Origin: Candidatus Fervidibacter japonicus
Lineage (GTDB): Bacteria; Armatimonadota; Fervidibacteria; Fervidibacterales; Fervidibacteraceae
NCBI GenBank assembly: GCA_002898575.1
Contig: BEHT01000014.1
Location: forward strand, 6,480-70,479
Reading direction: 5' to 3'
DNA: 64,000 nt
In this document: in pieces, positions 37,106 to 48,770 of the stretch
Layout of the letters: every line of letters starts with the position of its first letter
How positions within the stretch are numbered: position 1 is the stretch's first letter
Position numbers and translations under genes: made by a program
The notes under the pieces: model-generated
Seen by the model: the letters and a program-made list of their open reading frames with translations, nothing else
Databases searched by the model: none
Told to the model about the DNA's origin: nothing

Positions 37106-37241
37106 CGCACAACACCTCCCTGCAAGGTCTCTCCTGCTGCAAGGATAACACAACTTTTTTTGTCAATAGAGTTACCCGGCTGTTTTTCATCAGCGCAGGC
37201 AGTGCCTACACCCCAATTTGTTCGCTACAATTCCGTCGGTG

Positions 37242-40200
37242 ATGCCGATGCGTTTATTGGTTTGGTTGCTTTGGCTTTGTTTGGTAATTGACTTTGCAGC
37301 AGCCCAAACGCTGTCCACAAAGGATGGATTGCGACTTTCGTGGACGGCAGATGGAACGCTGCGGGAATTGGTTGTCGCCAAAACGAATTTTGTCGGTATC
37401 GGTGGATTCTCCTCCGCTGAACCCAAAGAGCCCGATAAATTGCAATGGGTGCCTCTAAGGGGAAGAGTAGAGCGCAAAGGCAACACGCTGACGATGCAAG
37501 TCAGTGGCATGGACTTGGAACTGAGTGCCACCTTCACCGAACAACCTGACGCCATCTTTTGCGACGGTTTCGTCCGCAATAAGACACAAGCCGACCGAGC
37601 CGTAGTGCTGGCGTTTGTCGTTCCGCTGGACGCAACCAACTGGCAGTGGTGGGACAATCTGCGGACGGCACGCCGTATTGAACCGAAAATAACACCGCTT
37701 TACACCTCTACCATCCGCTACGGCAATCGTGGCGAACACTCACTTTATCCATTTTGTGCTGTCAACAGCGATAAAGTTGGCATTGCTCTAAGCATCGCTC
37801 TTGATTTGCCCGTCATCCATCGCTTCGTTTACGACGCCGCTCAAAAGCAGTTGAGGATTGAGTGGGATTTCGGGTTGTCGCCCGATGGTGGGACGAGGGT
37901 GGCGGGGAAGCGGGAACCGAACACAGCAATTTTCCGCTTCGCTATTTATGCTTTGGATGAACCGCGATGGGGCATGAGAGCCGCTGCCGATAAGTTCTAC
38001 CGCCTGTTCCCCGAAAGTTTCAAAGTGAGGGTTAAACGCTTCGGTATTTGGATGCCTTTCACTGACATCGCAAAAATTGCCGACTTTGAAGACTTCGGCT
38101 TCGCCTACCACGAAGGAGCACAAAATCCCGATTTCAACCGAAAGCACGGCTTTTACAACTTCCGCTACGAAGAGCCCTGGTCGGCATGGTTTTACCTGCC
38201 ACCCGATGCACCAACTGACTTGACAATGGACCAACTTTTCGCTTACCCGAACAAAAGGGAGCAACATCCAAACCTTGCAGAAATTGTCAAGTCTTGCGGC
38301 GTTCAAGATGAACAAGGTCGCTTTTCAATGCGCACAGAGAAAACTGACCCTGTCCATTGGGCTGGTGGGCAAACTCTTTACAACTTTCTCGTCAACGCTG
38401 ACCCAGACATTGGGCGGGACGAGGGACGCGGGGCGAGGGACGAGGCAACAAAAGCAAAGGCGATGGACAAGACGCTTCACACGGTGCTCAGTGATGAGCG
38501 ATTGGATGGCGTCTACTTTGATGGCTTTGGTGAGTGGGTTATGCCGAACGAGAATTATCGGCGAGACCATTGGCGCGTTGCCGATTTCCCCTTGACTTTC
38601 AGTTGGCGGACGAAACAACCAACTCAATTGGCACCTTTCGGCATCTACGAGTATCTCGCATACGCTGCCCAGCAACTTCACGCTGCAGGCAAGTTAGTCA
38701 TGGCAAACGGTTTCGGTTACGGCTTCCCGTTCCATGCCCATTGGGTTGATGTCGGTGGCAACGAAATTCGTTGGACTCGTCAAAGGGACGATTTCGCTTT
38801 CTTTGACTATCGGCGGGTTCTGGCATATCGCAAGCCTTTTTTGCCCCTCAACAATGAGTTCTTTGACCGTGAGTTCACATCGGATGTCGCCGAGGATTAC
38901 TTCCGCTGGGCTCTCTTTTACGGTTTCCCGCCATCTTGCTTTGCGCCCGGCGCCGGCGCTTTCGGCAACTATTGGAACAACCCTGAATTTCACAACCGCG
39001 ACCGTCATTTATTCCGCAGGTATGTTCCACTCATCGTTCGGTTGTGCGAAGCGGGTTGGGAACCGATAACGCACGCACTGAGCGACAACGAAAAAGTTTT
39101 GGTTGAGCGATTTGGGCGGTGGGGCGATGGCAATTTGCACTTCACCGTTTACAATGCCAGCGACCAAATGCAAAACACAGTCATCGCCATTGACGCCGCT
39201 AAGTTGGGTTTGAGTGAACGGGATGTTCGCAACTTGACAATTTGGGTTCTAACCGATTTGAAACCTTTCCCGTTCGCTGTCCGCGAGACGAACCTTTCTC
39301 CCTTGACAATCTTGCTTGGTGGGACTTTAGCGCCTCGCGAGACGGCGCTGCTTTGGTTAGCGAGGGACGGAGCAAGTGTGATGGATGGTCTCGCTAAGTT
39401 GGCGAAACTTCACCTTCAACGAGCGGTCAGCAAGTCGCAGCGGCGAACACAAGCGCCTGACGAATTGAAGGCGGAAACGAAACAATCCTCTGAAGCACAA
39501 CCGAAAACTCTCGCCGATTGGCTCAAGTGGTTGGAGCAGTTGCAGAGGTTGAAAGCCGAATGGCAGCGACAAGAAGACGGGGCAAACATTGCTGCCGATT
39601 TCGCAGAAGCAATTCGCATCGTCAGTGCGATGGTGCGGGAACTCTTGGCGCTGCAAACCGATGCGGTCTTGCCTCACGAAGTCGCTGCAGGTGAACTTTT
39701 GCGAGTTCCCGTTGATGTCCGCAACACTGGCAAGGAAGTTTTGAAGGATGCAAGGTTGGTAGCAATGTTGACCTTAACTGAAGTCGGAACTTCTCAGGCT
39801 CAATCTCTCAACCCCGAAACTGCTGAACTTTCTCTGGGCGATTTGCCCCCGAAAGCGCTGAGGCGGGAACTGTTGATGTTGAAAGTGCCCGAAGGTTGGG
39901 CAAACAAACGGGCAAATTTGCGTGTGGCACTGCAAGCAACTGTCATGGGCGCGACTGTTAATTTGCCCATTGACGAAGTGGTGGTCAAAGTTTTGCCACC
40001 AACAGAAATCACTGTCACGCAATTTGGGGGCGAACCGAGCATTTTGGTGCGCATCAGAAACAACACGGGTGAGAGTCTTCAAGGGCAAGTTAAAGTCACT
40101 TCACCGTTAGAGTTCGTGGAGCGCAAAGTGACGCTCAGAGCGAGGGCGACGACGGAAATAAAACTAACTGCTGTCAAGCCTCCAACGGAAGCGCAATTAG

Positions 40201-41141
40201 CGAGTGCAAAGGTTGAGGTGGTATGGGACGAGGGACGCGGGACGAGGGACGGGGTAACGAAATGGCTTTCTTTAATTGCGACGCCGATTGGCAGTAACTT
40301 GCTGAAGAATGGTTCATTTGAAGATGGGGACAAGCCACCATTGCCCAACTGGGGCTTTTATGGGGTCGGTTACAAGTTGAGCAGTGACGCCGTTGATGGT
40401 AAACAGAGCATTGCTTGCGAGAGCGATGATACTCAAACGATGCGCGGTGCAGTGCAAACGGTGGCGCTCAACCAAACCGAAGCAGTCCCACTGATTTTGC
40501 ACGGGTTCAGCAAAGGCGAAAATGTTTTCCCGACACATTTGAGTGGCGACTATTCCCTTTACCTTGACGCTCGCTATGTTGATGGCTCGCCGCTTTGGGG
40601 CGAAATCGTGCCATTTGATGGGACGAGGGACGCGGGGCGAGGGACGGGCTGGCAGTGGGGATGGAGGTTAATTGTGCCTGAAAGACCGTTGCGGGAAGCG
40701 GTCGTCTATGCCCTTTTCCGTTACCGTCGCGGGCGGGCTTGGTTTGACAGCGTTTATTTGGGCGAACTTAGGTTGCCACCAAGTTTGAATGCGGAAGCAA
40801 CGGAGGGCGAGGCTACTGCTGAGCCGAAAAGTTTAAGAGCCTTGACGGACCGAGATTTCCGAACGATGTGGGAAGGCAAAGGTGAAAAACAAGTTGTGCT
40901 CGCTGTGAAGTCGGCAGCGACAATCAGTCAAGTTGCGATTTGGTGGCATATTCCAGAGCGACGAGCCGATTTCGTGAGTGTGGAAGTTTGGGTTGATGGC
41001 AATTGGCAAAAAGTTTCAGAGCGCCCAACCGACGCCGATACATGGTTGACAGTTTTGGATTTTGAAGCGACGAAGACTCAAAGATTGCGCATCACATTCC
41101 GAGGGATAAGTTACGCAGTGCGGGAAATTGAATTGCGTTAA
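37242..41141 (+). CDS. Large secreted multidomain protein, putative glycoside hydrolase with CBM-like modules
   Basis: Signal peptide (..AAAQ); aromatic-rich core with LDGVYFDGFGEW; NLLKNGSFEDG module; F5/8-type-C-like C-terminus. The ORF is open from 37218. Confidence 0.75.
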   Translation: MPMRLLVWLLWLCLVIDFAAAQTLSTKDGLRLSWTADGTLRELVVAKTNFVGIGGFSSAEPKEPDKLQWVPLRGRVERKGNTLTMQVSGMDLELSATFTEQPDAIFCDGFVRNKTQADRAVVLAFVVPLDATNWQWWDNLRTARRIEPKITPLYTSTIRYGNRGEHSLYPFCAVNSDKVGIALSIALDLPVIHRFVYDAAQKQLRIEWDFGLSPDGGTRVAGKREPNTAIFRFAIYALDEPRWGMRAAADKFYRLFPESFKVRVKRFGIWMPFTDIAKIADFEDFGFAYHEGAQNPDFNRKHGFYNFRYEEPWSAWFYLPPDAPTDLTMDQLFAYPNKREQHPNLAEIVKSCGVQDEQGRFSMRTEKTDPVHWAGGQTLYNFLVNADPDIGRDEGRGARDEATKAKAMDKTLHTVLSDERLDGVYFDGFGEWVMPNENYRRDHWRVADFPLTFSWRTKQPTQLAPFGIYEYLAYAAQQLHAAGKLVMANGFGYGFPFHAHWVDVGGNEIRWTRQRDDFAFFDYRRVLAYRKPFLPLNNEFFDREFTSDVAEDYFRWALFYGFPPSCFAPGAGAFGNYWNNPEFHNRDRHLFRRYVPLIVRLCEAGWEPITHALSDNEKVLVERFGRWGDGNLHFTVYNASDQMQNTVIAIDAAKLGLSERDVRNLTIWVLTDLKPFPFAVRETNLSPLTILLGGTLAPRETALLWLARDGASVMDGLAKLAKLHLQRAVSKSQRRTQAPDELKAETKQSSEAQPKTLADWLKWLEQLQRLKAEWQRQEDGANIAADFAEAIRIVSAMVRELLALQTDAVLPHEVAAGELLRVPVDVRNTGKEVLKDARLVAMLTLTEVGTSQAQSLNPETAELSLGDLPPKALRRELLMLKVPEGWANKRANLRVALQATVMGATVNLPIDEVVVKVLPPTEITVTQFGGEPSILVRIRNNTGESLQGQVKVTSPLEFVERKVTLRARATTEIKLTAVKPPTEAQLASAKVEVVWDEGRGTRDGVTKWLSLIATPIGSNLLKNGSFEDGDKPPLPNWGFYGVGYKLSSDAVDGKQSIACESDDTQTMRGAVQTVALNQTEAVPLILHGFSKGENVFPTHLSGDYSLYLDARYVDGSPLWGEIVPFDGTRDAGRGTGWQWGWRLIVPERPLREAVVYALFRYRRGRAWFDSVYLGELRLPPSLNAEATEGEATAEPKSLRALTDRDFRTMWEGKGEKQVVLAVKSAATISQVAIWWHIPERRADFVSVEVWVDGNWQKVSERPTDADTWLTVLDFEATKTQRLRITFRGISYAVREIELR
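38416..38443 (+). repeat. Intragenic heptamer tandem element, copy 1
   Basis: GGGACGA-GGGACGC-GGGGCGA-GGGACGA. Confidence 0.85.
40225..40252 (+). repeat. Intragenic heptamer tandem element, copy 2
   Basis: GGGACGA-GGGACGC-GGGACGA-GGGACGG. Confidence 0.85.
40620..40647 (+). repeat. Intragenic heptamer tandem element, copy 3
   Basis: GGGACGA-GGGACGC-GGGGCGA-GGGACGG. Confidence 0.85.
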
Positions 41142-41210: not shown

Positions 41211-42305
41211 ATGTGCAGATTTCGGCAGGCAAGACAAACACTCATCCTTGCTATCGCCTCACTTGCCACCCTTTGGACTTCCAAGTTTGCTTATGCGTGT
41301 ATGGTATGTGAAATGCAAAGAAGTCCAGCCATTGTCCTAACTTTTTCACCCGATGGTCAATGGTTGGCTTCGTCCAATCGTTGGAGGTGGAGTGGGGGAA
41401 AGTTGACGACCAGAACGACCATAGAAATTTGGAAAGTGCCGAAGTTGAAAATAGTCAAGCAACTGCCTGAAGGACAGAGAGTTATTGCACTCGCTTTTTC
41501 GCCTGATAGCAAAATTCTCGCAGCAAGTGGTATGAACAATTGGGTCTCGCTTTGGAAATTGCCTGAAGGAAAAAGAGTGAGGCGATTTATGACAGAGGCT
41601 GAAGGATACAATGAAGTCCACAGCCTTGTCTTCTCGCCAAACGGTCGCTTGTTGGCAGCAGGGACACGGGATGGTGTTATCTACCTTTGGCAAACGCCGC
41701 AGGTTAAATTGATTGGCGTTCTCGTGACTGGTCAAGAAGGAATAGTTGTGTCCCTTACTTTCTCACCCGACGGCAAAAAGTTGGTAGCGCTTGTGAAAGG
41801 ATATTGGCATCAACTTTGGGTTCAACTTTGGGATGTGCAGGCGAAAAAGTTGCTTTGGGAACGAGAACCTAAATTCAGGCTCTCATCAATTGCCTTCACA
41901 AGAGACGGACGCAGGTTAGTTGGAGCAGGTGATACTCTTCTCGTGCTTTCCACAATTGATGGAAGCGTTATCAGCAAACAAGGTTTAACTTCATTTCATT
42001 CTCCGCCTGGCGGTGTTTCTGCCGATGGGCAATTTATAGCCCTTTACGACTTTTCAGGCTCAGTCAAAGTCAAGAGATCGCACGACTTCAAGGACATTTG
42101 GCAGGCAAGCGTAATCAGTTGGAAGTTGAAAAAGCAACTGCACCGTTGGGCAGAGAGGATTGAGCAGGGCACGAATTTACCAATGACAAAGCCGTTCTCA
42201 CGCCCTATATTGCCATCTGCTTCCATGGCTGCATTTTCACCAGACAACCGATGGTTGGCTTTGGGTTTTGATAACGGGCAAATCAAGTTGTGGCGAATTA
42301 GGTGA
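41211..42305 (+). CDS. WD40-repeat beta-propeller protein
   Basis: Repeated LAFSPDGxxLA...IxLW units. Confidence 0.9.
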   Translation: MCRFRQARQTLILAIASLATLWTSKFAYACMVCEMQRSPAIVLTFSPDGQWLASSNRWRWSGGKLTTRTTIEIWKVPKLKIVKQLPEGQRVIALAFSPDSKILAASGMNNWVSLWKLPEGKRVRRFMTEAEGYNEVHSLVFSPNGRLLAAGTRDGVIYLWQTPQVKLIGVLVTGQEGIVVSLTFSPDGKKLVALVKGYWHQLWVQLWDVQAKKLLWEREPKFRLSSIAFTRDGRRLVGAGDTLLVLSTIDGSVISKQGLTSFHSPPGGVSADGQFIALYDFSGSVKVKRSHDFKDIWQASVISWKLKKQLHRWAERIEQGTNLPMTKPFSRPILPSASMAAFSPDNRWLALGFDNGQIKLWRIR

Positions 42306-42421
42306 TTGAATGCAGACAGGCAACGGCAATGCAGCACCTTGACTTTGCTTTGTTGACACAGTTTGGTTGGCTTGATGGACGATGGGGGTGATTTTGGCGA
42401 ACCACTGCATCTCCCTTTGCA

Positions 42422-42928
42422 TCAGGTCTGGTCACTTTGGCTTTCAGCCTTTGCTATGACCTCACCAAGGAATGCCCCCAAAATCGCTCCCCCGATTGCG
42501 CTCACAATTGCTCCTGTCGCTCTCCAGATCGTGTCCTCAACGATTTCGCCCTTGATTTCCCAGATTGAGTTTGAGATTATGCTTGCGATTAAGCCCCCGA
42601 TTGCACCTCCGATGGCACCTCTGATTAATCCCTTGCGCCCACCTATGAACGCACCTAAAACTGCCCCCCCGATTGCTCCCCAGATTGCAGACTGGATTGC
42701 AACTGTGAGTAAGATCGCTCTCTTGGCTGCGGTCTGGGTTACGCCATTGATTACATCCTCAACCATGAAGGCTGTGATTTCAATTCCGCAGATTAGCGGG
42801 CAGATTAGGAACCCGATTGCACCTCCGATAGCGCCTCTAATTCGCCACCACAAAACCAAGTTCCTTCCACAGTGCCCACAGGAAATAGCATCTTTCGGAT
42901 TCTCCCTACCACACCATGCACAACGCAC
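42422..42928 (-). CDS. Zinc-ribbon protein with glycine-zipper-like membrane repeats
   Basis: CAWCG...CGHCG followed by repeated GAIGGAIG(G) hydrophobic units. Confidence 0.8.
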   Translation of the reverse strand: MRCAWCGRENPKDAISCGHCGRNLVLWWRIRGAIGGAIGFLICPLICGIEITAFMVEDVINGVTQTAAKRAILLTVAIQSAIWGAIGGAVLGAFIGGRKGLIRGAIGGAIGGLIASIISNSIWEIKGEIVEDTIWRATGAIVSAIGGAILGAFLGEVIAKAESQSDQT

Positions 42929-42970
42929 TTTAACTCACCTTCTGAAGTCCAAAATGCAAGTGTAAAGCCT

Positions 42971-43783
42971 TCAGCCTCGCAATCCCTTCTCTCGCAAAAG
43001 TTTATCTGCCCATTCGGCATCTTCGCCTTCCAGCGGTATCGGCGGATCACGGCGATAATCTATCCTGCGAGCATAAGCGCCCTCATCATAACATCGGTCA
43101 AACACCGCTTGCAAATCCAAAACAACATCGGGGTCGCCATCAGCAAGGGGAACATGAATGCGAGGCAATCTTTGCCTTACCGTGATCGGCCAAACCTCAA
43201 ACCGATTCCCTTCCCCTCCCCGATGCAAACAGACAAGATAATCCCACTTGCACTTTTTAAGCAACTGCTCTCGTGACACTGCAACAGTGTGTTCGCCAGT
43301 CCGCAAAAGGTCTATCTCAATGAGATGAGTTTGGCTCTTGAGAATTTCCTGCTGTTTTGTCAAGTAAAGTTTTCGCCCCTCGTGCCCTGGTGTCTTGTCG
43401 GAGTAACTGAGGACTTCAATGACCGTCACCACTCGGCTCTCTTCTCCGACAGGCAAGATTTCAACGAAGACTTCTCGTATTTCCACTGGCTCATATGTCA
43501 AGACCAAAGGAGGGTCACTTGCGATTGCCACTGCGGTTGTTGTGCCCCTTGAGCCTTGTTCTGTTTGGGGTTGGGTAATGGGATGTTCCAGCACGACTAC
43601 ATCGGGGTAAACGCTTCGTTCTGGCTGGACAATGTAAACCCGTTCGCCAATGTCAGCAACATAACGCGGTGGCAGCACCGCGTTCAGCGCTGCTCGGATG
43701 TAGGTAATCAAACCTTGATGCACTCCTGGCCACAAAACAGGATTTTCAAGGTAGGGATCCATCCCTGGGAAAGGGCTGGGCAT
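42971..43783 (-). CDS. DUF4058 family protein (restriction-endonuclease-like fold)
   Basis: MPSPFPGMDPYLE, VIEVLS, HLIEIDLLR and DVVLDLQAVFDRCYD motifs. Confidence 0.9.
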   Translation of the reverse strand: MPSPFPGMDPYLENPVLWPGVHQGLITYIRAALNAVLPPRYVADIGERVYIVQPERSVYPDVVVLEHPITQPQTEQGSRGTTTAVAIASDPPLVLTYEPVEIREVFVEILPVGEESRVVTVIEVLSYSDKTPGHEGRKLYLTKQQEILKSQTHLIEIDLLRTGEHTVAVSREQLLKKCKWDYLVCLHRGGEGNRFEVWPITVRQRLPRIHVPLADGDPDVVLDLQAVFDRCYDEGAYARRIDYRRDPPIPLEGEDAEWADKLLREKGLRG

Positions 43784-43838: not shown

Positions 43839-46800
43839 TTATTCCGTTGACACCGTTTGGTCGGCTTGTTGACTGATGGGGATGATTTTGACGAACCATC
43901 TGTCGGCGTCGTCCATCAGGTTGCGGATACGAAGGGCTTGTTGCCACTGCCCGCTGCGCTCCAATTCGTCGGCGTAAGCGCTCAACAGTTCGCGGATGTT
44001 GCGGACATCGTTGTCGTCCACAGGTAGGATGCTGACCTTGGCGCTCTTTGCCAACCGGCGCCGTAACGCTGTTTCGTCAAAGCCCAAATCGGGCGTCAAC
44101 TTGACATAGACGACGCCACCTGTCATGCCCGCACAAATCCAAGGACCAGGGTCGCCCAAGACAACCGCGCGACCAGCGGTCATGTATTCAAAGGCAAAGC
44201 CTTTCAGGTGGGCTTTAGCGGCGATGTTAATCAACCCTTGCGCGTCATCAATGGGTTCGGTAATTTCGCCGCCGAAAACGACATCGGCGCCCGACAAGCG
44301 GATGCACGCGCGGCTGTCGGCATAACCCTGCACGACGAAGAACCCGCGTTGAGCGCCGTAGGCGAAACTCTTGCCGACGCTTCCGTCCAAGCGATTGCCC
44401 TCGTGATTAGTGCCTTTTAGGATGATGATGCTGCCACCGCACGCCCCTTTGCCGACGCCGTCCTGCGCTCCGCCTTCAATGCGGAGGCTCACTTGGGGGA
44501 TGTTGAACGCGCCCAGCCCGTTGCCAGCGATAGTGTGGTTCAGGTGCAATTCAACCCGCTCCAACTCCTTGAGTTTGGGCGGGCGCAATTCCACTGACCC
44601 TTTGGGAACGGGCAACCCAATTTGGGCGCGGGCGATGACGCCCGAAAGGTGCGCGCCGATGGCGCGGTCGGATGCTCCCAAGCGGCTGTCTTCGTAAACA
44701 ATCCGTTTGCCATCGCGCTCAATTTCGTCCAAGATGACCTGCGTGATGAGTTTGGTCGTGTAACCTAAGGGGCGGTAAACTTTGCGGGTCGCTGCGGTCC
44801 GTTCGGTCTCAACGATAATGGGCTTGACTAAATCGGTCAGGTCAATCAAATCGTGCCCGCGCGTTTGGACGAGCAAATCGCTTCGTCCGACCAAATCTTG
44901 CAAACGGTCTGCGCCAAGCATCCCGGTGAGGCGTTTGAGTTCCTCACCCATGCCGCTGAAGAAGTTAACTAGCGCCTCAACGGCGCGGTCAAAATCGCGC
45001 GGTTCAAACCGCTTCAATCCGCGCCGGGTCGCTTCTTCACGGCTTTCAATTTGCGTGGCGATGCCGACATGGCAGGTGTCCAGTTGGCAGCCACGACAAA
45101 TGGTGCAACCGATCGCCACCATCGCCAAGGTCCCAAATCCCACGCGGTTGGCGCCGAGCAAGATACACTTGAGGGCATCGGAAGCGGTGCGCATCCCGCC
45201 ATCCGCCCAGAGTTCCACTTGGTCGCGGATGCCCGCTTGCAGCAGCGCCCGATGGGCTTCCTTGATGCCGACTTCCGCAGGCAGCCCGACATACTTAAGG
45301 GCGTGAATGCGTGCTGCCCCTGTCCCGCCATCAAACCCCGACAAATTGACGACATCCGCCCCTGCTTTGGCGATGCCGACAGCGATGACGCCGATGTTGG
45401 CGACAACAGGCACCTTCACGATGACCTTCGCTTTCGGGTTGATGGTCTTCAGCTCGCTGATGAGTTGGGCGAGGTCTTCAATGCTGTAAAGGTCGTGGTT
45501 GTTGTTGGGCGAAATCAAGTCCACGCCAGGCACTGCATAGCGGACAGAAGCGACCTTCGGCGTGACTTTGCGCCCTGGCAAGTGCCCCCCTTCGCCGGGC
45601 TTTGCGCCTTGCCCGATTTTGATTTCCAGCCAATAGGACGAGTTGCAGTAGTAGGCGTTGACGCCAAACCGCCCTGAGGCAACTTGTTGTCCGCGATTGA
45701 ACGGGTAACGCCCGATCAAGTCTTTCAGTTCGCCGCCCTCGCCCGTCAACGCCAACATGTTGAGCCGATAGGCGGCTTCAGCGTAAGCGCGATAGGCAAT
45801 TTCGTTCTGCGAGCCAAAGGACATGGAAGCGATGACGAAAGGCAAATCGTGCCAACCGATGCCGATGTCCACGCGGTCAGGCGCCACCCACTGCGAGCGG
45901 TCGTCTAAAAACTGCACATCCAACAGATGGCGCAACGCGATGGGGTGCTCACGCTCCAAAGCGATCACGCGGGCTTCATATTCGCGATAATCGCTTTCGC
46001 CGTTGGCGGCGCGCCCAGCGGCTTTCCAGACATGGGGGTAAAAGCGGAAGTCGCGACGCAAAGGGGAACGGCGGTGCGCGGTGTCCGTCGCACCGTAAAG
46101 GAACTGCCAACGACGACGCACTTCTTTGTCCCAACGGTCAAGGTCAAAGGCGGCTTTTTCGCTGCCGTAAAAGTTTTTGCATTCGGTCAACGCTGCGATT
46201 TCCGGAGCGACGCCGATGGATGCGAAGTTTTTCCCGTAACCGCGCAACTCATGCGTCCCCATCGTCGCGATGACCTTCTCCAACCCCTTGCTTAACCCGA
46301 CAATCACATTGCTCAGCCGGCGGGCGCGTTCCCATTCGTCAGCGACAGTGCATTCGGGTTTCTCGCTGGACAACGCCACATCGTAAAGCAGATAGGGCAC
46401 GACAGCGTCAGCGCCCAAACTGATGGCGAAAATCAAATCGTGCAAGTTGCGCAACGCTCCCGACCGCAGCACGAGGCTGCAGCGCCGGCGCAAATTCTGT
46501 TGGCTCTTGGGCGATTCACCGTTGTCGCTTTCCGTTTCTTGTCCTTTGTCCCACGCCTCCCGCAACGCTTTGTCCACGGCGGCGACAGCGAGGTGTGGGT
46601 CAAGGAGGAGGGTTTCGTGCTGAAAGGCATCGCCGTCGTCCAGCACCAGAAGGTGGGCACCGGCACGCACCGCTTCTTTCGCTGCTTCCACCAACTGCTG
46701 CAAGGCGTCACGGGCTGTTTGTTGTGTGGCGTAAGCCAACGACAGTCGTGTCCACCGAGTCGGTTCGGAAAATGCTGTGAGCACGCACTCCAGAGTTTTT

Positions 46801-48770
46801 GCGTGGGCGTCCTCTGCTGCCCACTCTGCCAATTCGCGCGACAGCAACCCCGTTTGCTCAAGGTAAGTGGCATCAACCAGAAGGGGCGTCTCCAATTCCA
46901 GCACCTGCTTCAGTTGAGACGCACCGAAAGGTGCGCCTTCCCAACTCCCTGCCCCTTGTCCCTTGACCCGTATCCCTTCCAGCGGTGGGCGTTTGCCCAG
47001 TATCGTTTGCGTGTTGAAGTGCTCCGTCTCGCGTTCACGGTCCATAGATGGGTTGGTGACGACGGCGACGATTTCTTTGTAGTAGTCGGCGAGGTTGTGC
47101 CCTTCAGGCGCCAAAACGGCGAGCGGACCGTCGTAACCAAGCGAGCCGATCGGCTCATTACCTGAAGGGGCGATCGCTTCAATGTAGCGGACTTCTTCAT
47201 CGCCCCAACCAAACGCCCCCATGACGGCGGGTTTGCGTTGGCGGTCTTTCGTCAAACCATCCGGCGCCGGGAGCGAATGAAACGAGGGGCTGGGAGCAAG
47301 GGACGCCGAGGTCAAGTCAACACCGGATTCACTGTCGTCCGTGTTGTTCGCGCCGTTGCTACGCTGCCCGTCACTGTCTCGCCCGTTACCGAATTCACCG
47401 TCAGGGGCAAGGGGCGAACGGGGTGTCGCTTCTCGCTCCCCGACAGCGACTTGAGCGTACACTGTGGCGCTGACGAACGTGCCTTGCTCTACGCGCTCTT
47501 CAACGGCGAAGCGTTCCTGCCACTTGCGATAGATGTGCCATTGCAGGTCGCGGTAGGAGATGACTTCAACGGAGCCGTCATCGTGCAACTTGACGGCAAT
47601 TTTTTCGCCGGGCGCCAAGGGCTTCGGGTCACGCACCAGCGTCTCAAAGGGCAAGACGCCCCGCTCGCTGGTGAAGACCAGTTCCTTCTCCGTTTCGGCA
47701 AACCACAGCGGACGCAAGCCCAGCGCGTCCACACTGAAAACGCACTCATCGGCGTAGCGGGACACGATGGCTGCCGGTCCTTGCGCGAACGGACCGAACG
47801 CCGCACGATAGTAGCGATACATCGTTCGCAACTCTTCAGGCAGCCACTTTAACTCTTCCAGCACAGGCGGAAAAACGATCTCCATCGCTTCGGCAAGGCT
47901 AAAGCCGTAGTCCAAGATGAGGGTGTGCAGCACGCGGTCAAGGTCTTGCGAGTCGGAACCGTCGTGGGGGAGTTGGACGCCGATCATTTGCCCTTCGCGG
48001 CGCAACTTCTCAATCGTGTTGATTTCGCCGTTGTGCCCTAAAAGGGCAAAGGGTTGCGCCCGCTCAAAAGTGGACCAAGTGTTGGTGGAGTAGCGGCAGT
48101 GCCCGATGGTCACCCGACTGACACAATCGGGGTCAGACAGTTCGGGAAAGTAATGGGCGATACCCGACGGGCTGCCATAGACCTTGTAGACAGCGGTGTA
48201 GCGGCTGACGGAAAGCGGGTAAAGAGGCGTCTCCCGCTCAATGCGCAATTGCAAATGAAACAAGCGGCGGTCCATCACTTCGTCGGGGGCAGGTTGCTCA
48301 AAGACGGCAGCGATTTGCCAAAATTCGGGTTCTACCTTGCGGGCATTTCGCCCCAGCGCGTCCTGGCGGGTTTTACCCCGTCGCTCTAAAAGCAAGCGGG
48401 CGCCGATGTCCGCTAAACCCTTTTGCAAATACGCCAGCCAATCGTGGGCGCGGGTTTTTTCGGACTTGGGCACAAAGAGATGGGCGACGAAAAAGCGTTG
48501 GCTTTCCGCCCACGAGTCATTCAACCCTGCCAGATGCAAATAACGCCCCCACAGGCGCCGGGGCAAGTCAATCATGACACCGCAGCCATCTCCTTCGCCA
48601 TCCACCATGCCCGAACGATGCCCCATTTTTTCCAACGCCTGCAAAGTCCGCTTGATATTGCCGTGTGACGGGGCGCCCTTGCGGATATTGCAAATCAGCG
48701 CGCAACTTTCATGCTCCTCGTTGAAGGGTTCGGAGGGGAAGGATACCCCCCAACCCGAAAACCGCTGCAC
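43839..48770 (-). CDS. gltB: Glutamate synthase large subunit
   Basis: N-terminal amidotransferase Cys (EHESCAL), HCRYSTNT, HNGEINT, KIGQGAKPGEGGHLP, Fe-S C..C..C....C cluster and C-terminal GXGXG repeats. Confidence 0.93.
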   Translation of the reverse strand: MQRFSGWGVSFPSEPFNEEHESCALICNIRKGAPSHGNIKRTLQALEKMGHRSGMVDGEGDGCGVMIDLPRRLWGRYLHLAGLNDSWAESQRFFVAHLFVPKSEKTRAHDWLAYLQKGLADIGARLLLERRGKTRQDALGRNARKVEPEFWQIAAVFEQPAPDEVMDRRLFHLQLRIERETPLYPLSVSRYTAVYKVYGSPSGIAHYFPELSDPDCVSRVTIGHCRYSTNTWSTFERAQPFALLGHNGEINTIEKLRREGQMIGVQLPHDGSDSQDLDRVLHTLILDYGFSLAEAMEIVFPPVLEELKWLPEELRTMYRYYRAAFGPFAQGPAAIVSRYADECVFSVDALGLRPLWFAETEKELVFTSERGVLPFETLVRDPKPLAPGEKIAVKLHDDGSVEVISYRDLQWHIYRKWQERFAVEERVEQGTFVSATVYAQVAVGEREATPRSPLAPDGEFGNGRDSDGQRSNGANNTDDSESGVDLTSASLAPSPSFHSLPAPDGLTKDRQRKPAVMGAFGWGDEEVRYIEAIAPSGNEPIGSLGYDGPLAVLAPEGHNLADYYKEIVAVVTNPSMDRERETEHFNTQTILGKRPPLEGIRVKGQGAGSWEGAPFGASQLKQVLELETPLLVDATYLEQTGLLSRELAEWAAEDAHAKTLECVLTAFSEPTRWTRLSLAYATQQTARDALQQLVEAAKEAVRAGAHLLVLDDGDAFQHETLLLDPHLAVAAVDKALREAWDKGQETESDNGESPKSQQNLRRRCSLVLRSGALRNLHDLIFAISLGADAVVPYLLYDVALSSEKPECTVADEWERARRLSNVIVGLSKGLEKVIATMGTHELRGYGKNFASIGVAPEIAALTECKNFYGSEKAAFDLDRWDKEVRRRWQFLYGATDTAHRRSPLRRDFRFYPHVWKAAGRAANGESDYREYEARVIALEREHPIALRHLLDVQFLDDRSQWVAPDRVDIGIGWHDLPFVIASMSFGSQNEIAYRAYAEAAYRLNMLALTGEGGELKDLIGRYPFNRGQQVASGRFGVNAYYCNSSYWLEIKIGQGAKPGEGGHLPGRKVTPKVASVRYAVPGVDLISPNNNHDLYSIEDLAQLISELKTINPKAKVIVKVPVVANIGVIAVGIAKAGADVVNLSGFDGGTGAARIHALKYVGLPAEVGIKEAHRALLQAGIRDQVELWADGGMRTASDALKCILLGANRVGFGTLAMVAIGCTICRGCQLDTCHVGIATQIESREEATRRGLKRFEPRDFDRAVEALVNFFSGMGEELKRLTGMLGADRLQDLVGRSDLLVQTRGHDLIDLTDLVKPIIVETERTAATRKVYRPLGYTTKLITQVILDEIERDGKRIVYEDSRLGASDRAIGAHLSGVIARAQIGLPVPKGSVELRPPKLKELERVELHLNHTIAGNGLGAFNIPQVSLRIEGGAQDGVGKGACGGSIIILKGTNHEGNRLDGSVGKSFAYGAQRGFFVVQGYADSRACIRLSGADVVFGGEITEPIDDAQGLINIAAKAHLKGFAFEYMTAGRAVVLGDPGPWICAGMTGGVVYVKLTPDLGFDETALRRRLAKSAKVSILPVDDNDVRNIRELLSAYADELERSGQWQQALRIRNLMDDADRWFVKIIPISQQADQTVSTE
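46935..46969 (-). repeat. Heptamer tandem insertion inside gltB
   Basis: Minus strand: GGGTCAA-GGGACAA-GGGGCAG-GGAGTTG-GGAAGGC. Confidence 0.6.

Follow-up and report, generated by a model that had tools for sequence, protein, structure and literature searches.

Heptamer arrays inserted in a Fervidibacter gene match the arms of PF05635 cassettes and may be their solo arms or landing pads

Three direct arrays of the heptamer GGGRCGN, each four units (28 nt) long, lie in frame within a single gene of Candidatus Fervidibacter japonicus. They match the arms of cassettes that carry a PF05635 gene in other species of the genus, and these cassettes are closer relatives of the arrays than are either the STRR sequences of cyanobacteria or the Rickettsia palindromic elements (RPEs). 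We propose, at a probability of about 0.58, that the arrays belong to a small-element family specific to Fervidibacter, as solo arms without the gene or as landing pads.

An exact pattern search of the window (the whole 64-kb stretch of DNA analysed here) returns exactly three matches to (GGGRCGN)x4, at 38416, 40225 and 40620, all on the plus strand, and none in 100 dinucleotide-preserving shuffles, the chance expectation being none. Copy 1 (38416..38443) is read in codon phase 1 as RDEGRGARDE, at about residues 400–409 of the host protein; copy 2 (40225..40252) is likewise read in phase 1, as WDEGRGTRDG (about residues 1003–1012), and copy 3 (40620..40647) in phase 0, as GTRDAGRGT (about residues 1135–1144), where the phases are offsets counted from the start of the host open reading frame (ORF). 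The initial annotation had described three 28-nt elements in one gene, read in two codon phases to give these peptides, and both parts of that description are confirmed. Tandem Repeats Finder reports a period of 7 with about four copies for all three arrays, plus a 14-nt super-period. They are direct repeats without self-complementarity, they carry no ORF, and none has an inverted partner.

The host ORF (P0001; 37218..41141, plus strand) encodes 1307 residues, with a probable signal peptide, a conserved central domain and C-terminal beta-sandwich domains. Its database matches are weak: Pfam gives only a sub-threshold F5/8-type-C-like match, NCBIfam gives nothing meaningful, and a fold search returns only generic beta-sandwich matches (TM 0.09–0.14). 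In the parts of the gene that lie outside the arrays the three codon positions vary at 0.136, 0.085 and 0.314, as in a gene under purifying selection. In the predicted structure copy 1 corresponds to model loop 287–306 (pLDDT below 50), copy 2 to a loop between strands 886–896 and 907–914 (pLDDT below 50 at 898–905), and copy 3 to a loop between strands 1018–1025 and 1039–1045 (pLDDT below 50 at 1030–1035). The earlier suggestion that the repeats occupy protein loops thus holds for all three, each of these loops being modelled with low confidence.

Alignment with orthologues shows that the arrays lying in these loops are insertions, as had been supposed, since the sister genus or a congener lacks each of them. 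At the copy 1 site the array is present in 12 of 12 aligned Fervidibacter loci (11 congener loci and the source genome), and 24 nt are missing from the four sister-genus orthologues. Copies 2 and 3 are each found at the same codon position in 8 of the 9 other aligned congener loci. Copy 2 is missing from one congener (G010, locus L008) and from the sister genus, and is expanded in four others (G013, G014, G011 and G007), and at the copy 3 site G007 (locus L009) is missing exactly 21 nt, or three units, with a single GGGGCGG unit left. Empty sites contain a seed that resembles one unit (TGGACGA for copies 1 and 2, GGGGCGG for copy 3). Insert lengths in the P0001 and gltB orthologue comparisons include 15, 24, 33 and 39 nt, which do not correspond to whole heptamer units, and the reading frame is intact in every orthologue examined despite the differing array lengths. 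Contingency-locus simple sequence repeats (SSRs), in which phase variation turns a gene on or off as altered unit numbers shift its frame, were considered and ruled out; the frame does not shift in these orthologues, and the arrays are imperfect and mid-gene. These orthologue results rest on gene-by-gene alignments, chosen instead of a synteny comparison; in an unbiased listing of indels between the window and 4 x 80 kb from four congeners, rearrangement left too few shared ORFs.

It is the nucleotide sequence that is conserved and not the peptide, in keeping with the initial annotation, and this is apparent from the variation within the arrays, which tracks heptamer position and not codon position. 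The non-consensus fraction is 0.03–0.10 at heptamer positions 1, 2, 3 and 5, rises to about 0.19–0.20 at 4 and 6 and reaches 0.37 at 7, with no codon periodicity. Third-codon sites that fall on core positions of the heptamer vary at 0.077, where the background value is 0.31 (P < 1e-5), and amino-acid variability is 0.23 inside the arrays as against 0.17 in the rest of P0001. The base at position 7 also depends on the slot that the unit occupies (A, C, A/N, G), in an order matching the three copies (p = 6e-5 in congener samples that include some orthologous pairs), and within the source genome alone the slot-specific order is not significant (p = 0.21). This slot dependence points to descent from a 28-nt master and argues against free slippage of a 7-nt unit.

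The three arrays belong to a larger family. The source genome (G000) contains 56 GGGRCRN arrays, against 5 in a reversed-genome control, and exactly four units are present in 43 of the 56, as in 46 of 56 arrays in congener samples. All but two (54 of 56) lie inside ORFs of at least 150 aa, 40 in the sense and 14 in the antisense orientation, with every phase used; 36 of these 54 are within ORFs of at least 800 aa, which make up only 15% of the coding length, and the arrays follow no positional rule within genes. Matches to a three-unit pattern number 11–277 per genome within the genus, 6–39 in a sister genus of the same order (g3) and 0–4 in a second sister genus (g2), and there are hardly any in other members of the phylum. 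The exception is one genome (G032) with 14 matches, for which the reversed-pattern control gives 28, as against 0–5 elsewhere. By these counts the family reaches high numbers in no other genus and is restricted to the lineage, which agrees with the earlier proposal of a lineage-specific repeat. Among congeners the number of arrays varies more than 20-fold, with sites gained and lost, and one species (G014) has perfect GGGACGA runs that resemble a recent expansion.

The link to cassettes comes from these congeners. In four of them (G015, G004, G008 and G011) inverted four-unit GGGACGN arrays flank a 125-aa gene that matches TIGR02436 at 62 bits (cut-off 24) and also PDB 2GSC, and versions with GGGACAN arms are present in G013, G012 and G014. 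The gene encodes a PF05635/TIGR02436 four-helix bundle, of the type found in 23S rRNA intervening sequences, and in the minimum-energy fold the closing stem is formed by pairing of the two arms (z = -3.6). Unit type and number of units (four) are the same in solo arrays as in cassette arms, and the arrays fall into two types, CG and CA, each of which has a cognate cassette. Some sister cassettes in the genus have arms of heptamers or octamers that are incapable of forming quadruplexes, and four units are likewise the arm length where the units are not G-rich. The host ORF stays open in 9 of 9 in-gene cassettes examined, and host-frame stops are absent from the seven in-gene cassettes tested, as compared with 2–9 in 18 of 19 intergenic cassettes.

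The correspondence between arrays and cassettes from genome to genome is less simple. There is no PF05635 gene in the 96%-complete source assembly, and no intact GGGRCRN-armed cassette was found in the array-rich genomes G017 and G014. Array density is not correlated with the total PF05635 count (Spearman 0.28, p = 0.26), and only the contrast in density between genomes with zero and non-zero counts holds (p = 0.0013, with kin not independent). The host gene of the GGGACAN cassette has no orthologue in the source genome, and the source orthologue of an A2M-like cassette host has a decayed array of another unit type at the cassette site.

Comparison of P0001 orthologues reveals one loop that is occupied by a cassette in some species and by a solo arm in others. 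This fourth loop (39771..39821, plus strand; between KDARLVAMLTL and AELSLG, model loop 749–756) has no recognisable array in the source genome. Three congeners (G011, G005 and G002) have a complete PF05635 cassette with GGGACTG arms at this position, and two (G008 and G004) have the downstream arm only, the first 30 nt of which are identical to the 30-nt downstream arm of G011. Decayed versions of the G011-type downstream arm are present in G013 and G007, an ATGACCA-type array is present in G012 and G014, and the loop is 7 aa shorter in the sister genus. A cassette may have joined a resident array instead of being lost, and the hot spot therefore gives no direction.

On the solo-arm or landing-pad reading, the complete element would be a hairpin whose loop carries the gene for the PF05635/TIGR02436 four-helix bundle and is closed by two inverted arms with four GGGRCRN heptamers (28 nt) apiece. 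Because the heptamer lacks a stop codon in all six frames, an arm or a whole cassette could be read as an extra surface loop with the host protein unbroken, and the arrays are presumably translated as part of that protein. The three arrays would be old in-frame insertions, common to most congeners, with drift confined to heptamer positions 4, 6 and 7. We infer that solo arrays either are what remains of a cassette once its gene and one of its arms are gone or are homing sites for cassettes, that the arrays are acted on by the PF05635 protein, and that the element moves. Since orthologues examined at the three sites show neither a cassette nor a hairpin form, the link between solo array and cassette holds at the level of the family only. 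Moreover, a solo arm is unpaired and the source genome is without a PF05635 gene, so the conservation of the GGG.C core is not explained by a scar model alone, and the seed-like unit at empty sites would fit local expansion too.

Local expansion is central to the explanation that competes most directly with solo arms or landing pads, namely that the arrays are autonomous G-rich heptameric SSRs of the Xanthomonas and Nostoc kind, grown from chance seeds by slippage or template switching, with only frame-preserving outcomes surviving in coding DNA and with PF05635 cassettes inserting beside the arrays or borrowing them. The unit type, the preference for four units and the frequent convergent pairs all agree with Rehm et al. 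2015 (PMC4692102), each empty orthologous site has a single seed, to which the addition of 21 nt would yield four units, array lengths differ between species, the perfect runs in G014 resemble a recent expansion, and array density is uncorrelated with the PF05635 count. We nonetheless think it rather unlikely, because the slot-specific order implies a 28-nt master and not a 7-nt unit, the CG and CA types each have a cognate cassette, four units are the arm length even in cassettes whose units are not G-rich, and the inserts are not always whole units; slippage alone also leaves unexplained the expansion of this heptamer and no other, and in this genus only.

A quite different proposal, which includes the quadruplex or co-translational pausing role raised in the initial annotation, is that the arrays are selected nucleic-acid signals (G-quadruplex or protein-binding sites, in DNA or mRNA) which make transcription or translation slower at the borders of loops or domains. 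The arrays fit the motif G3N4G3N4G3N4G3, 43 of the 56 having the four tracts required, synonymous sites that fall in the GGG.C core are conserved, quadruplexes are formed in vitro by related repeats (PMC4692102), and a quadruplex is the minimum-energy RNA fold predicted by ViennaRNA at 37 C. However, ViennaRNA predicts no structure at 75 C, where its energy model is approximate, and the cultured species grows at 65–87.5 C (PMC11535203). The sister families with arms that cannot form quadruplexes weigh further against it, as do the quarter of arrays that are antisense, the more than 20-fold spread in copy number with sites gained and lost, and the lack of a positional rule within genes; the pausing or quadruplex role is not supported, and selected signals in general seem improbable. 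Selection of the segments as peptides, for example as a charged Gly/Arg/Asp loop motif aiding stability or binding, would accord with the prevalence of the sense orientation (40 to 14) and with the hydrophilic G/R/D/E/T loops that sense frames produce, but it is very hard to sustain when the DNA is read in all six frames, three sense and three antisense, to give unrelated peptides, when variation ignores codon position, and when amino acids vary more within the arrays than in the rest of the protein. Artefacts of assembly or sequencing can be set aside with near certainty: one array does lie at a contig break (C26/C44), but other species, independently assembled, have arrays at the same codon positions with species-specific substitutions.

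Several known systems resemble the Fervidibacter elements in part. RPEs are lineage-specific selfish palindromes of ~100–150 bp with a conserved sequence, which lie in frame in genes and are translated as surface segments; we know of no full-length, gene-carrying form. The arrays are likewise in frame in ORFs and are indels relative to orthologues, but they are 28-nt tandem heptamers and not palindromic. The small dispersed repeats of Nostoc punctiforme, on which Elhai and colleagues wrote in 2008, are reportedly 21–27 nt long and apparently mobile, inserting into genes and other elements, and to our knowledge no cassette partner has been described for them; they too are very small and located in genes, but belong to another organism and have other sequences.

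The S23p intervening sequences (IVSs) of 23S rRNA in Coxiella burnetii, Leptospira and Brucella, elements that RNase III excises, share with the congener cassettes an inverted-repeat stem of ~28 bp, variable tandem heptamers and a loop gene encoding a four-helix bundle of ~110–125 aa. The Coxiella IVS combines an S23p ORF with a terminal stem of 28 bp and tandem heptamers whose number varies (Warrier et al. 2016, PMC4990558); its stem equals the length of a solo arm (4 x 7 = 28 nt), and terminal heptamers in variable number are also a feature of the Fervidibacter elements. These differ in their location, which is protein-coding genes as opposed to helix 25 or 45 of 23S rRNA, in that the frame of the host stays open through the cassettes, and in that the three arrays are single arms without gene or partner in a genome without PF05635. 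The quadruplex-forming G-rich repeats of Xanthomonas (GGGAATC) and Nostoc (STRR-type, GGGGA(C/T)T) share a G3-tract heptamer, a dispersed and lineage-specific occurrence, the four-unit preference, convergent pairs and length variation (Rehm et al. 2015, PMC4692102). Their units differ from GGGRCRN, and they are enriched between genes and depleted within them, particularly on the coding strand, whereas 54 of 56 arrays here are in ORFs and 40 are sense; no association with mobile elements was reported for them, in contrast to the link with PF05635 cassettes in Fervidibacter.

A broader and more tentative possibility is that the heptamer-armed PF05635 cassettes constitute an undescribed class of mobile element inside protein-coding genes, which would insert in frame, be purged of host-frame stops so that host and cassette proteins overlap, and leave behind 28-nt solo arms under nucleotide-level selection, perhaps as landing pads for an Avd-like cassette protein. 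PF05635 resembles Avd, a protein of diversity-generating retroelements (PMC10053308). If there is such a class, the STRR and Xanthomonas GGGAATC repeats on one side and the rRNA intervening sequences on the other would be two forms of a single element family. Dispersed heptamer repeats of the cyanobacterial STRR and Xanthomonas GGGAATC kinds have been known for decades without an origin or function, and the S23p-bearing rRNA intervening sequences are equally unexplained. In Fervidibacter a single genus shows complete cassettes and orphan arms side by side in ordinary genes, with presence or absence polymorphic among species, and the origin of heptamer repeats becomes testable through comparative genomics and through experiments in the cultivable relative F. 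sacchari, whose genome paper leaves the repeats unmentioned.

The window also contains a same-family array of the GGGAYAC/GGGACAA type in gltB, located in frame at 46949..46976 on the minus strand (53428–53455 of contig C14) within the ORF at 43839..48770. Orthologues of gltB have presence/absence and length polymorphism at this site and at four others, and there are no gltB arrays in the two genomes of the same-family sister genus (g2). Selfish DNA would on this evidence reshape protein loops in a hyperthermophile, with the core enzyme GltB included, and the Gly/Arg/Asp/Thr-rich inserts in Fervidibacter enzymes would be repeat-derived and probably dispensable when thermostable glycan-degrading enzymes are engineered. 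The inserts in gltB fall at the places where alignment to solved GltB structures fails.

A search of the window for four tandem GGGRCGN heptamers, (GGGRCGN)x4, returns exactly three matches, at 38416, 40225 and 40620, each on the + strand, and none in 100 dinucleotide-preserving shuffles; Tandem Repeats Finder describes each of these arrays as a repeat of period 7 with about four copies, and also detects a 14-nt super-period. All three are hosted by a single ORF, 37218..41141 (+), which encodes the 1307-aa protein P0001. Offsets from the ORF start place copies 1 and 2 in codon phase 1 and copy 3 in phase 0, and the like DNA reads as RDEGRGARDE, WDEGRGTRDG and GTRDAGRGT, respectively; the pattern search and these offsets show the positions, strand, single gene, phases and peptides of the initial annotation to be correct throughout. 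In an AlphaFold2 model of medium quality covering residues 108–1307 (mean pLDDT 64.8, mostly 70–90 in the C-terminal beta domains), three of three arrays are predicted to occupy low-confidence loops between secondary-structure elements, in keeping with the proposed loop location (model residues 287–306, 898–905 and 1030–1035, numbered as P0001 minus 107).

Alignment of P0001 with orthologues from congeners (11 other loci), the sister genus (four genomes) and two more distant relatives (loci L017 and L018) supports the suggestion that the arrays are insertions, each being missing or shortened in the sister genus or a congener. Copy 1 is present in every congener aligned, and the sister genus is 24 nt short there; copy 2 is missing from congener G010 and from the sister genus, and congeners G013, G014, G011 and G007 have 20–30 extra residues at this site; and at copy 3 three units, exactly 21 nt, are missing from G007, which retains one GGGGCGG unit. 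Every empty site contains a unit-like word (TGGACGA for copies 1 and 2, GGGGCGG for copy 3). A conserved core enzyme, GltB, encoded nearby at 43839–48770 (−), has heptamer-derived inserts at five sites that are present, absent or length-variable among congeners, with none in two genomes of the sister genus g2, and these inserts are stretches without alignment to solved GltB structures. In the window gltB contains an array at 46949–46976 (−) and weaker arrays near 46539–46559 (−) and 47286–47306 (+). One of the five GltB sites is occupied by different repeat families in different species: sense-strand GGGRCGN units in some, GTGCGRG-type units on the opposite strand in others. P0001 and gltB are separated by two ORFs (41211–43000, +), the second of which (42363–42965) contains several 12-nt tandem repeats; both are absent from G014 and G012, where gltB directly follows the P0001 orthologue.

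Variation in the three arrays, measured as the non-consensus base fraction across 12 genus loci, is 0.03–0.10 at heptamer positions 1, 2, 3 and 5, 0.19–0.20 at positions 4 and 6, and 0.37 at position 7. By codon position the arrays give 0.11, 0.17 and 0.17, and the remaining gene 0.136, 0.085 and 0.314, a normal coding pattern. Third-codon sites that fall on the GGG.C core vary at 0.077, where the background level is 0.31 (P < 1e-5, resampling), and those at heptamer positions 4, 6 and 7 at 0.31. Amino-acid variability is higher within the arrays than elsewhere in the protein (0.23 vs 0.17). Variation thus tracks heptamer position, and the central point of the initial annotation, that it is the DNA and not the peptide that is conserved, holds; selection on the peptide is ruled out by this pattern together with the conserved core third-codon sites and the higher amino-acid variability.

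The family extends throughout the F. japonicus assembly (3.15 Mb, 58.6% G+C), in which 56 GGGRCRN arrays are found, compared to 5 in a reversed-sequence control, when one mismatch per unit is permitted and at least half of the units are exact. Four units are present in 43, three in 10 and five in 3. All but two (54 of 56) lie within ORFs of at least 150 aa, with the G-rich strand sense in 40 and antisense in 14, and arrays of either orientation occur in all three phases; by inspection, all six frames stay free of stop codons for every allowed unit variant. Of these 54 arrays, 36 are in ORFs of 800 aa or longer, a class that represents only 15% of the coding length (p = 3e-17). Eleven ORFs have two or more arrays, headed by a 1646-aa ORF with four and then P0001 with three. 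Gene-less inverted array pairs of hairpin form, with loops of 16–33 nt, are located in long ORFs on contigs C21 (19575–19646), C60 (3744–3820) and C7 (61274–61355). Two contig ends (C26:50501–50528 and C44:10–37) share one array and its flanking sequence, indicating that the assembly broke beside it. Two further loci, C12:3741–3762 and C14:73622–73643 (the latter on the contig of the window), have in common a 22-mer with a GGGTTTAGGGTTA core.

Three exact units occur 11–277 times per genome across 18 Fervidibacter genomes, that of F. japonicus being among the poorest (37), though these are metagenome-type assemblies of varying completeness and the counts include non-independent kin. The same-order sister genus g3 has 6–39 matches and g2 has 0–4. 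In the remaining Armatimonadota genomes searched they are essentially absent, with the sole exception of one genome (G032) that has 14 matches but 28 in its own reversed-pattern control (0–5 elsewhere). Within the phylum the repeat is therefore lineage-specific, as had been anticipated.

Genes of the PF05635 family are present in 14 of 17 other Fervidibacter genomes, and none was found in F. japonicus, G001, G007, G009 or the two sister genera. Nearly all of those at the loci examined are bracketed by inverted arrays of 7–8-nt units, forming cassettes in which the arm unit is specific to each cassette lineage. In G015, G004, G008 and G011 each arm has four GGGACGN units, and the upstream arm, GGGACGC-GGGACGA-GGGACGC-GGGACGA, has the same alternation as the P0001 copies; a sister cassette in G013, G012 and G014 has GGGACAN arms, and the two cassettes together account for two array subfamilies genome-wide. 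The cassette protein scores 62 bits against TIGR02436, 'four helix bundle protein' (cut-off 24), and also matches the Xanthomonas S23p-type structure 2GSC, and in the predicted RNA fold the arms pair as a stem closing the whole element (z = −3.6). The anatomy is the same as that of the ORF-bearing 23S rRNA intervening sequence of Coxiella, with its 28-bp terminal stem, S23p ORF and variable-number tandem heptamers (PMC4990558); PF05635 also resembles Avd, an accessory protein of diversity-generating retroelements (PMC10053308).

Cassettes are also located inside genes, and the host ORF is open through the whole insert in all nine examined, its frame being one base behind that of the cassette gene. 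Host-frame stops number zero in the seven tested (L224, L225 and L227 in an A2M-like gene of G015, G004 and G011; L228 and L229 in G013 and G012; L012:4000–4620 and L234 in the P0001 orthologues of G011 and G002) and 2–9 in 18 of 19 intergenic cassettes, and on this basis overlapping frames seem to encode host and cassette proteins over ~105 codons. One such insertion site is in the P0001 orthologues, where a fourth loop contains a complete GGGACTG-armed cassette in G011, G005 and G002, the downstream arm alone in G008 and G004 (its first 30 nt being the 30-nt downstream arm of G011), decayed forms of that arm in G013 and G007, and an array of another family in G012 and G014; the loop is 7 aa shorter in the sister genus. 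In F. japonicus the A2M-like gene, host elsewhere of the GGGACGN cassette, has a solo array that is decayed and built from another type of unit.

We propose that the three P0001 arrays are orphan arms of this cassette family that have become fixed, with the frame kept, in three loops tolerant of them, with a probability of about 0.58. Such solo arms, having neither gene nor partner, may be either remnants left when a cassette was lost or pre-existing sites at which a cassette is later added. Cassette loss would not by itself account for the GGG.C core, which is still conserved in partnerless arms of F. japonicus, a genome in which no cassette gene was found. The main alternative is that a quadruplex-type simple repeat expands autonomously by slippage in the style of Xanthomonas and Nostoc, repeats which share the preference for four units (PMC4692102); that class is, however, biased against coding sequence (PMC4692102), while the Fervidibacter arrays are almost all coding, and we consider this explanation unlikely. 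Array density does not correlate with PF05635 gene count (Spearman 0.28, p = 0.26, with kin non-independent), and all four genomes lacking the gene are among the five with the lowest densities. It is more doubtful still that the arrays are selected as nucleic-acid signals such as quadruplexes. Sister cassettes have units unable to form quadruplexes, and folding at 75 °C yields no predicted quadruplex, leaving a role for the quadruplex potential noted in the initial annotation unsupported.

Comparison of 46 four-unit congener arrays supports descent from a putative 28-nt master, as the position-7 base depends on unit slot, being mostly A in the first, C in the second, mixed in the third and G in the fourth (p = 6e-5, an optimistic value given some orthologous pairs). 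The three P0001 copies follow this order; across the F. japonicus arrays slot-dependence is not significant. Solo arrays are preceded by an A at −2 and a pyrimidine at −1 and followed by G-R-R-A, and both the outer and the inner flanks of cassette arms look the same.

Four-unit GGGACGN arrays occur sporadically in other phyla, including Gemmatimonadales, Acidobacteriota, Planctomycetota and Candidatus Pollutiaquabacter (loci L019–L136), often as close inverted pairs within long ORFs, and this architecture may be widespread.
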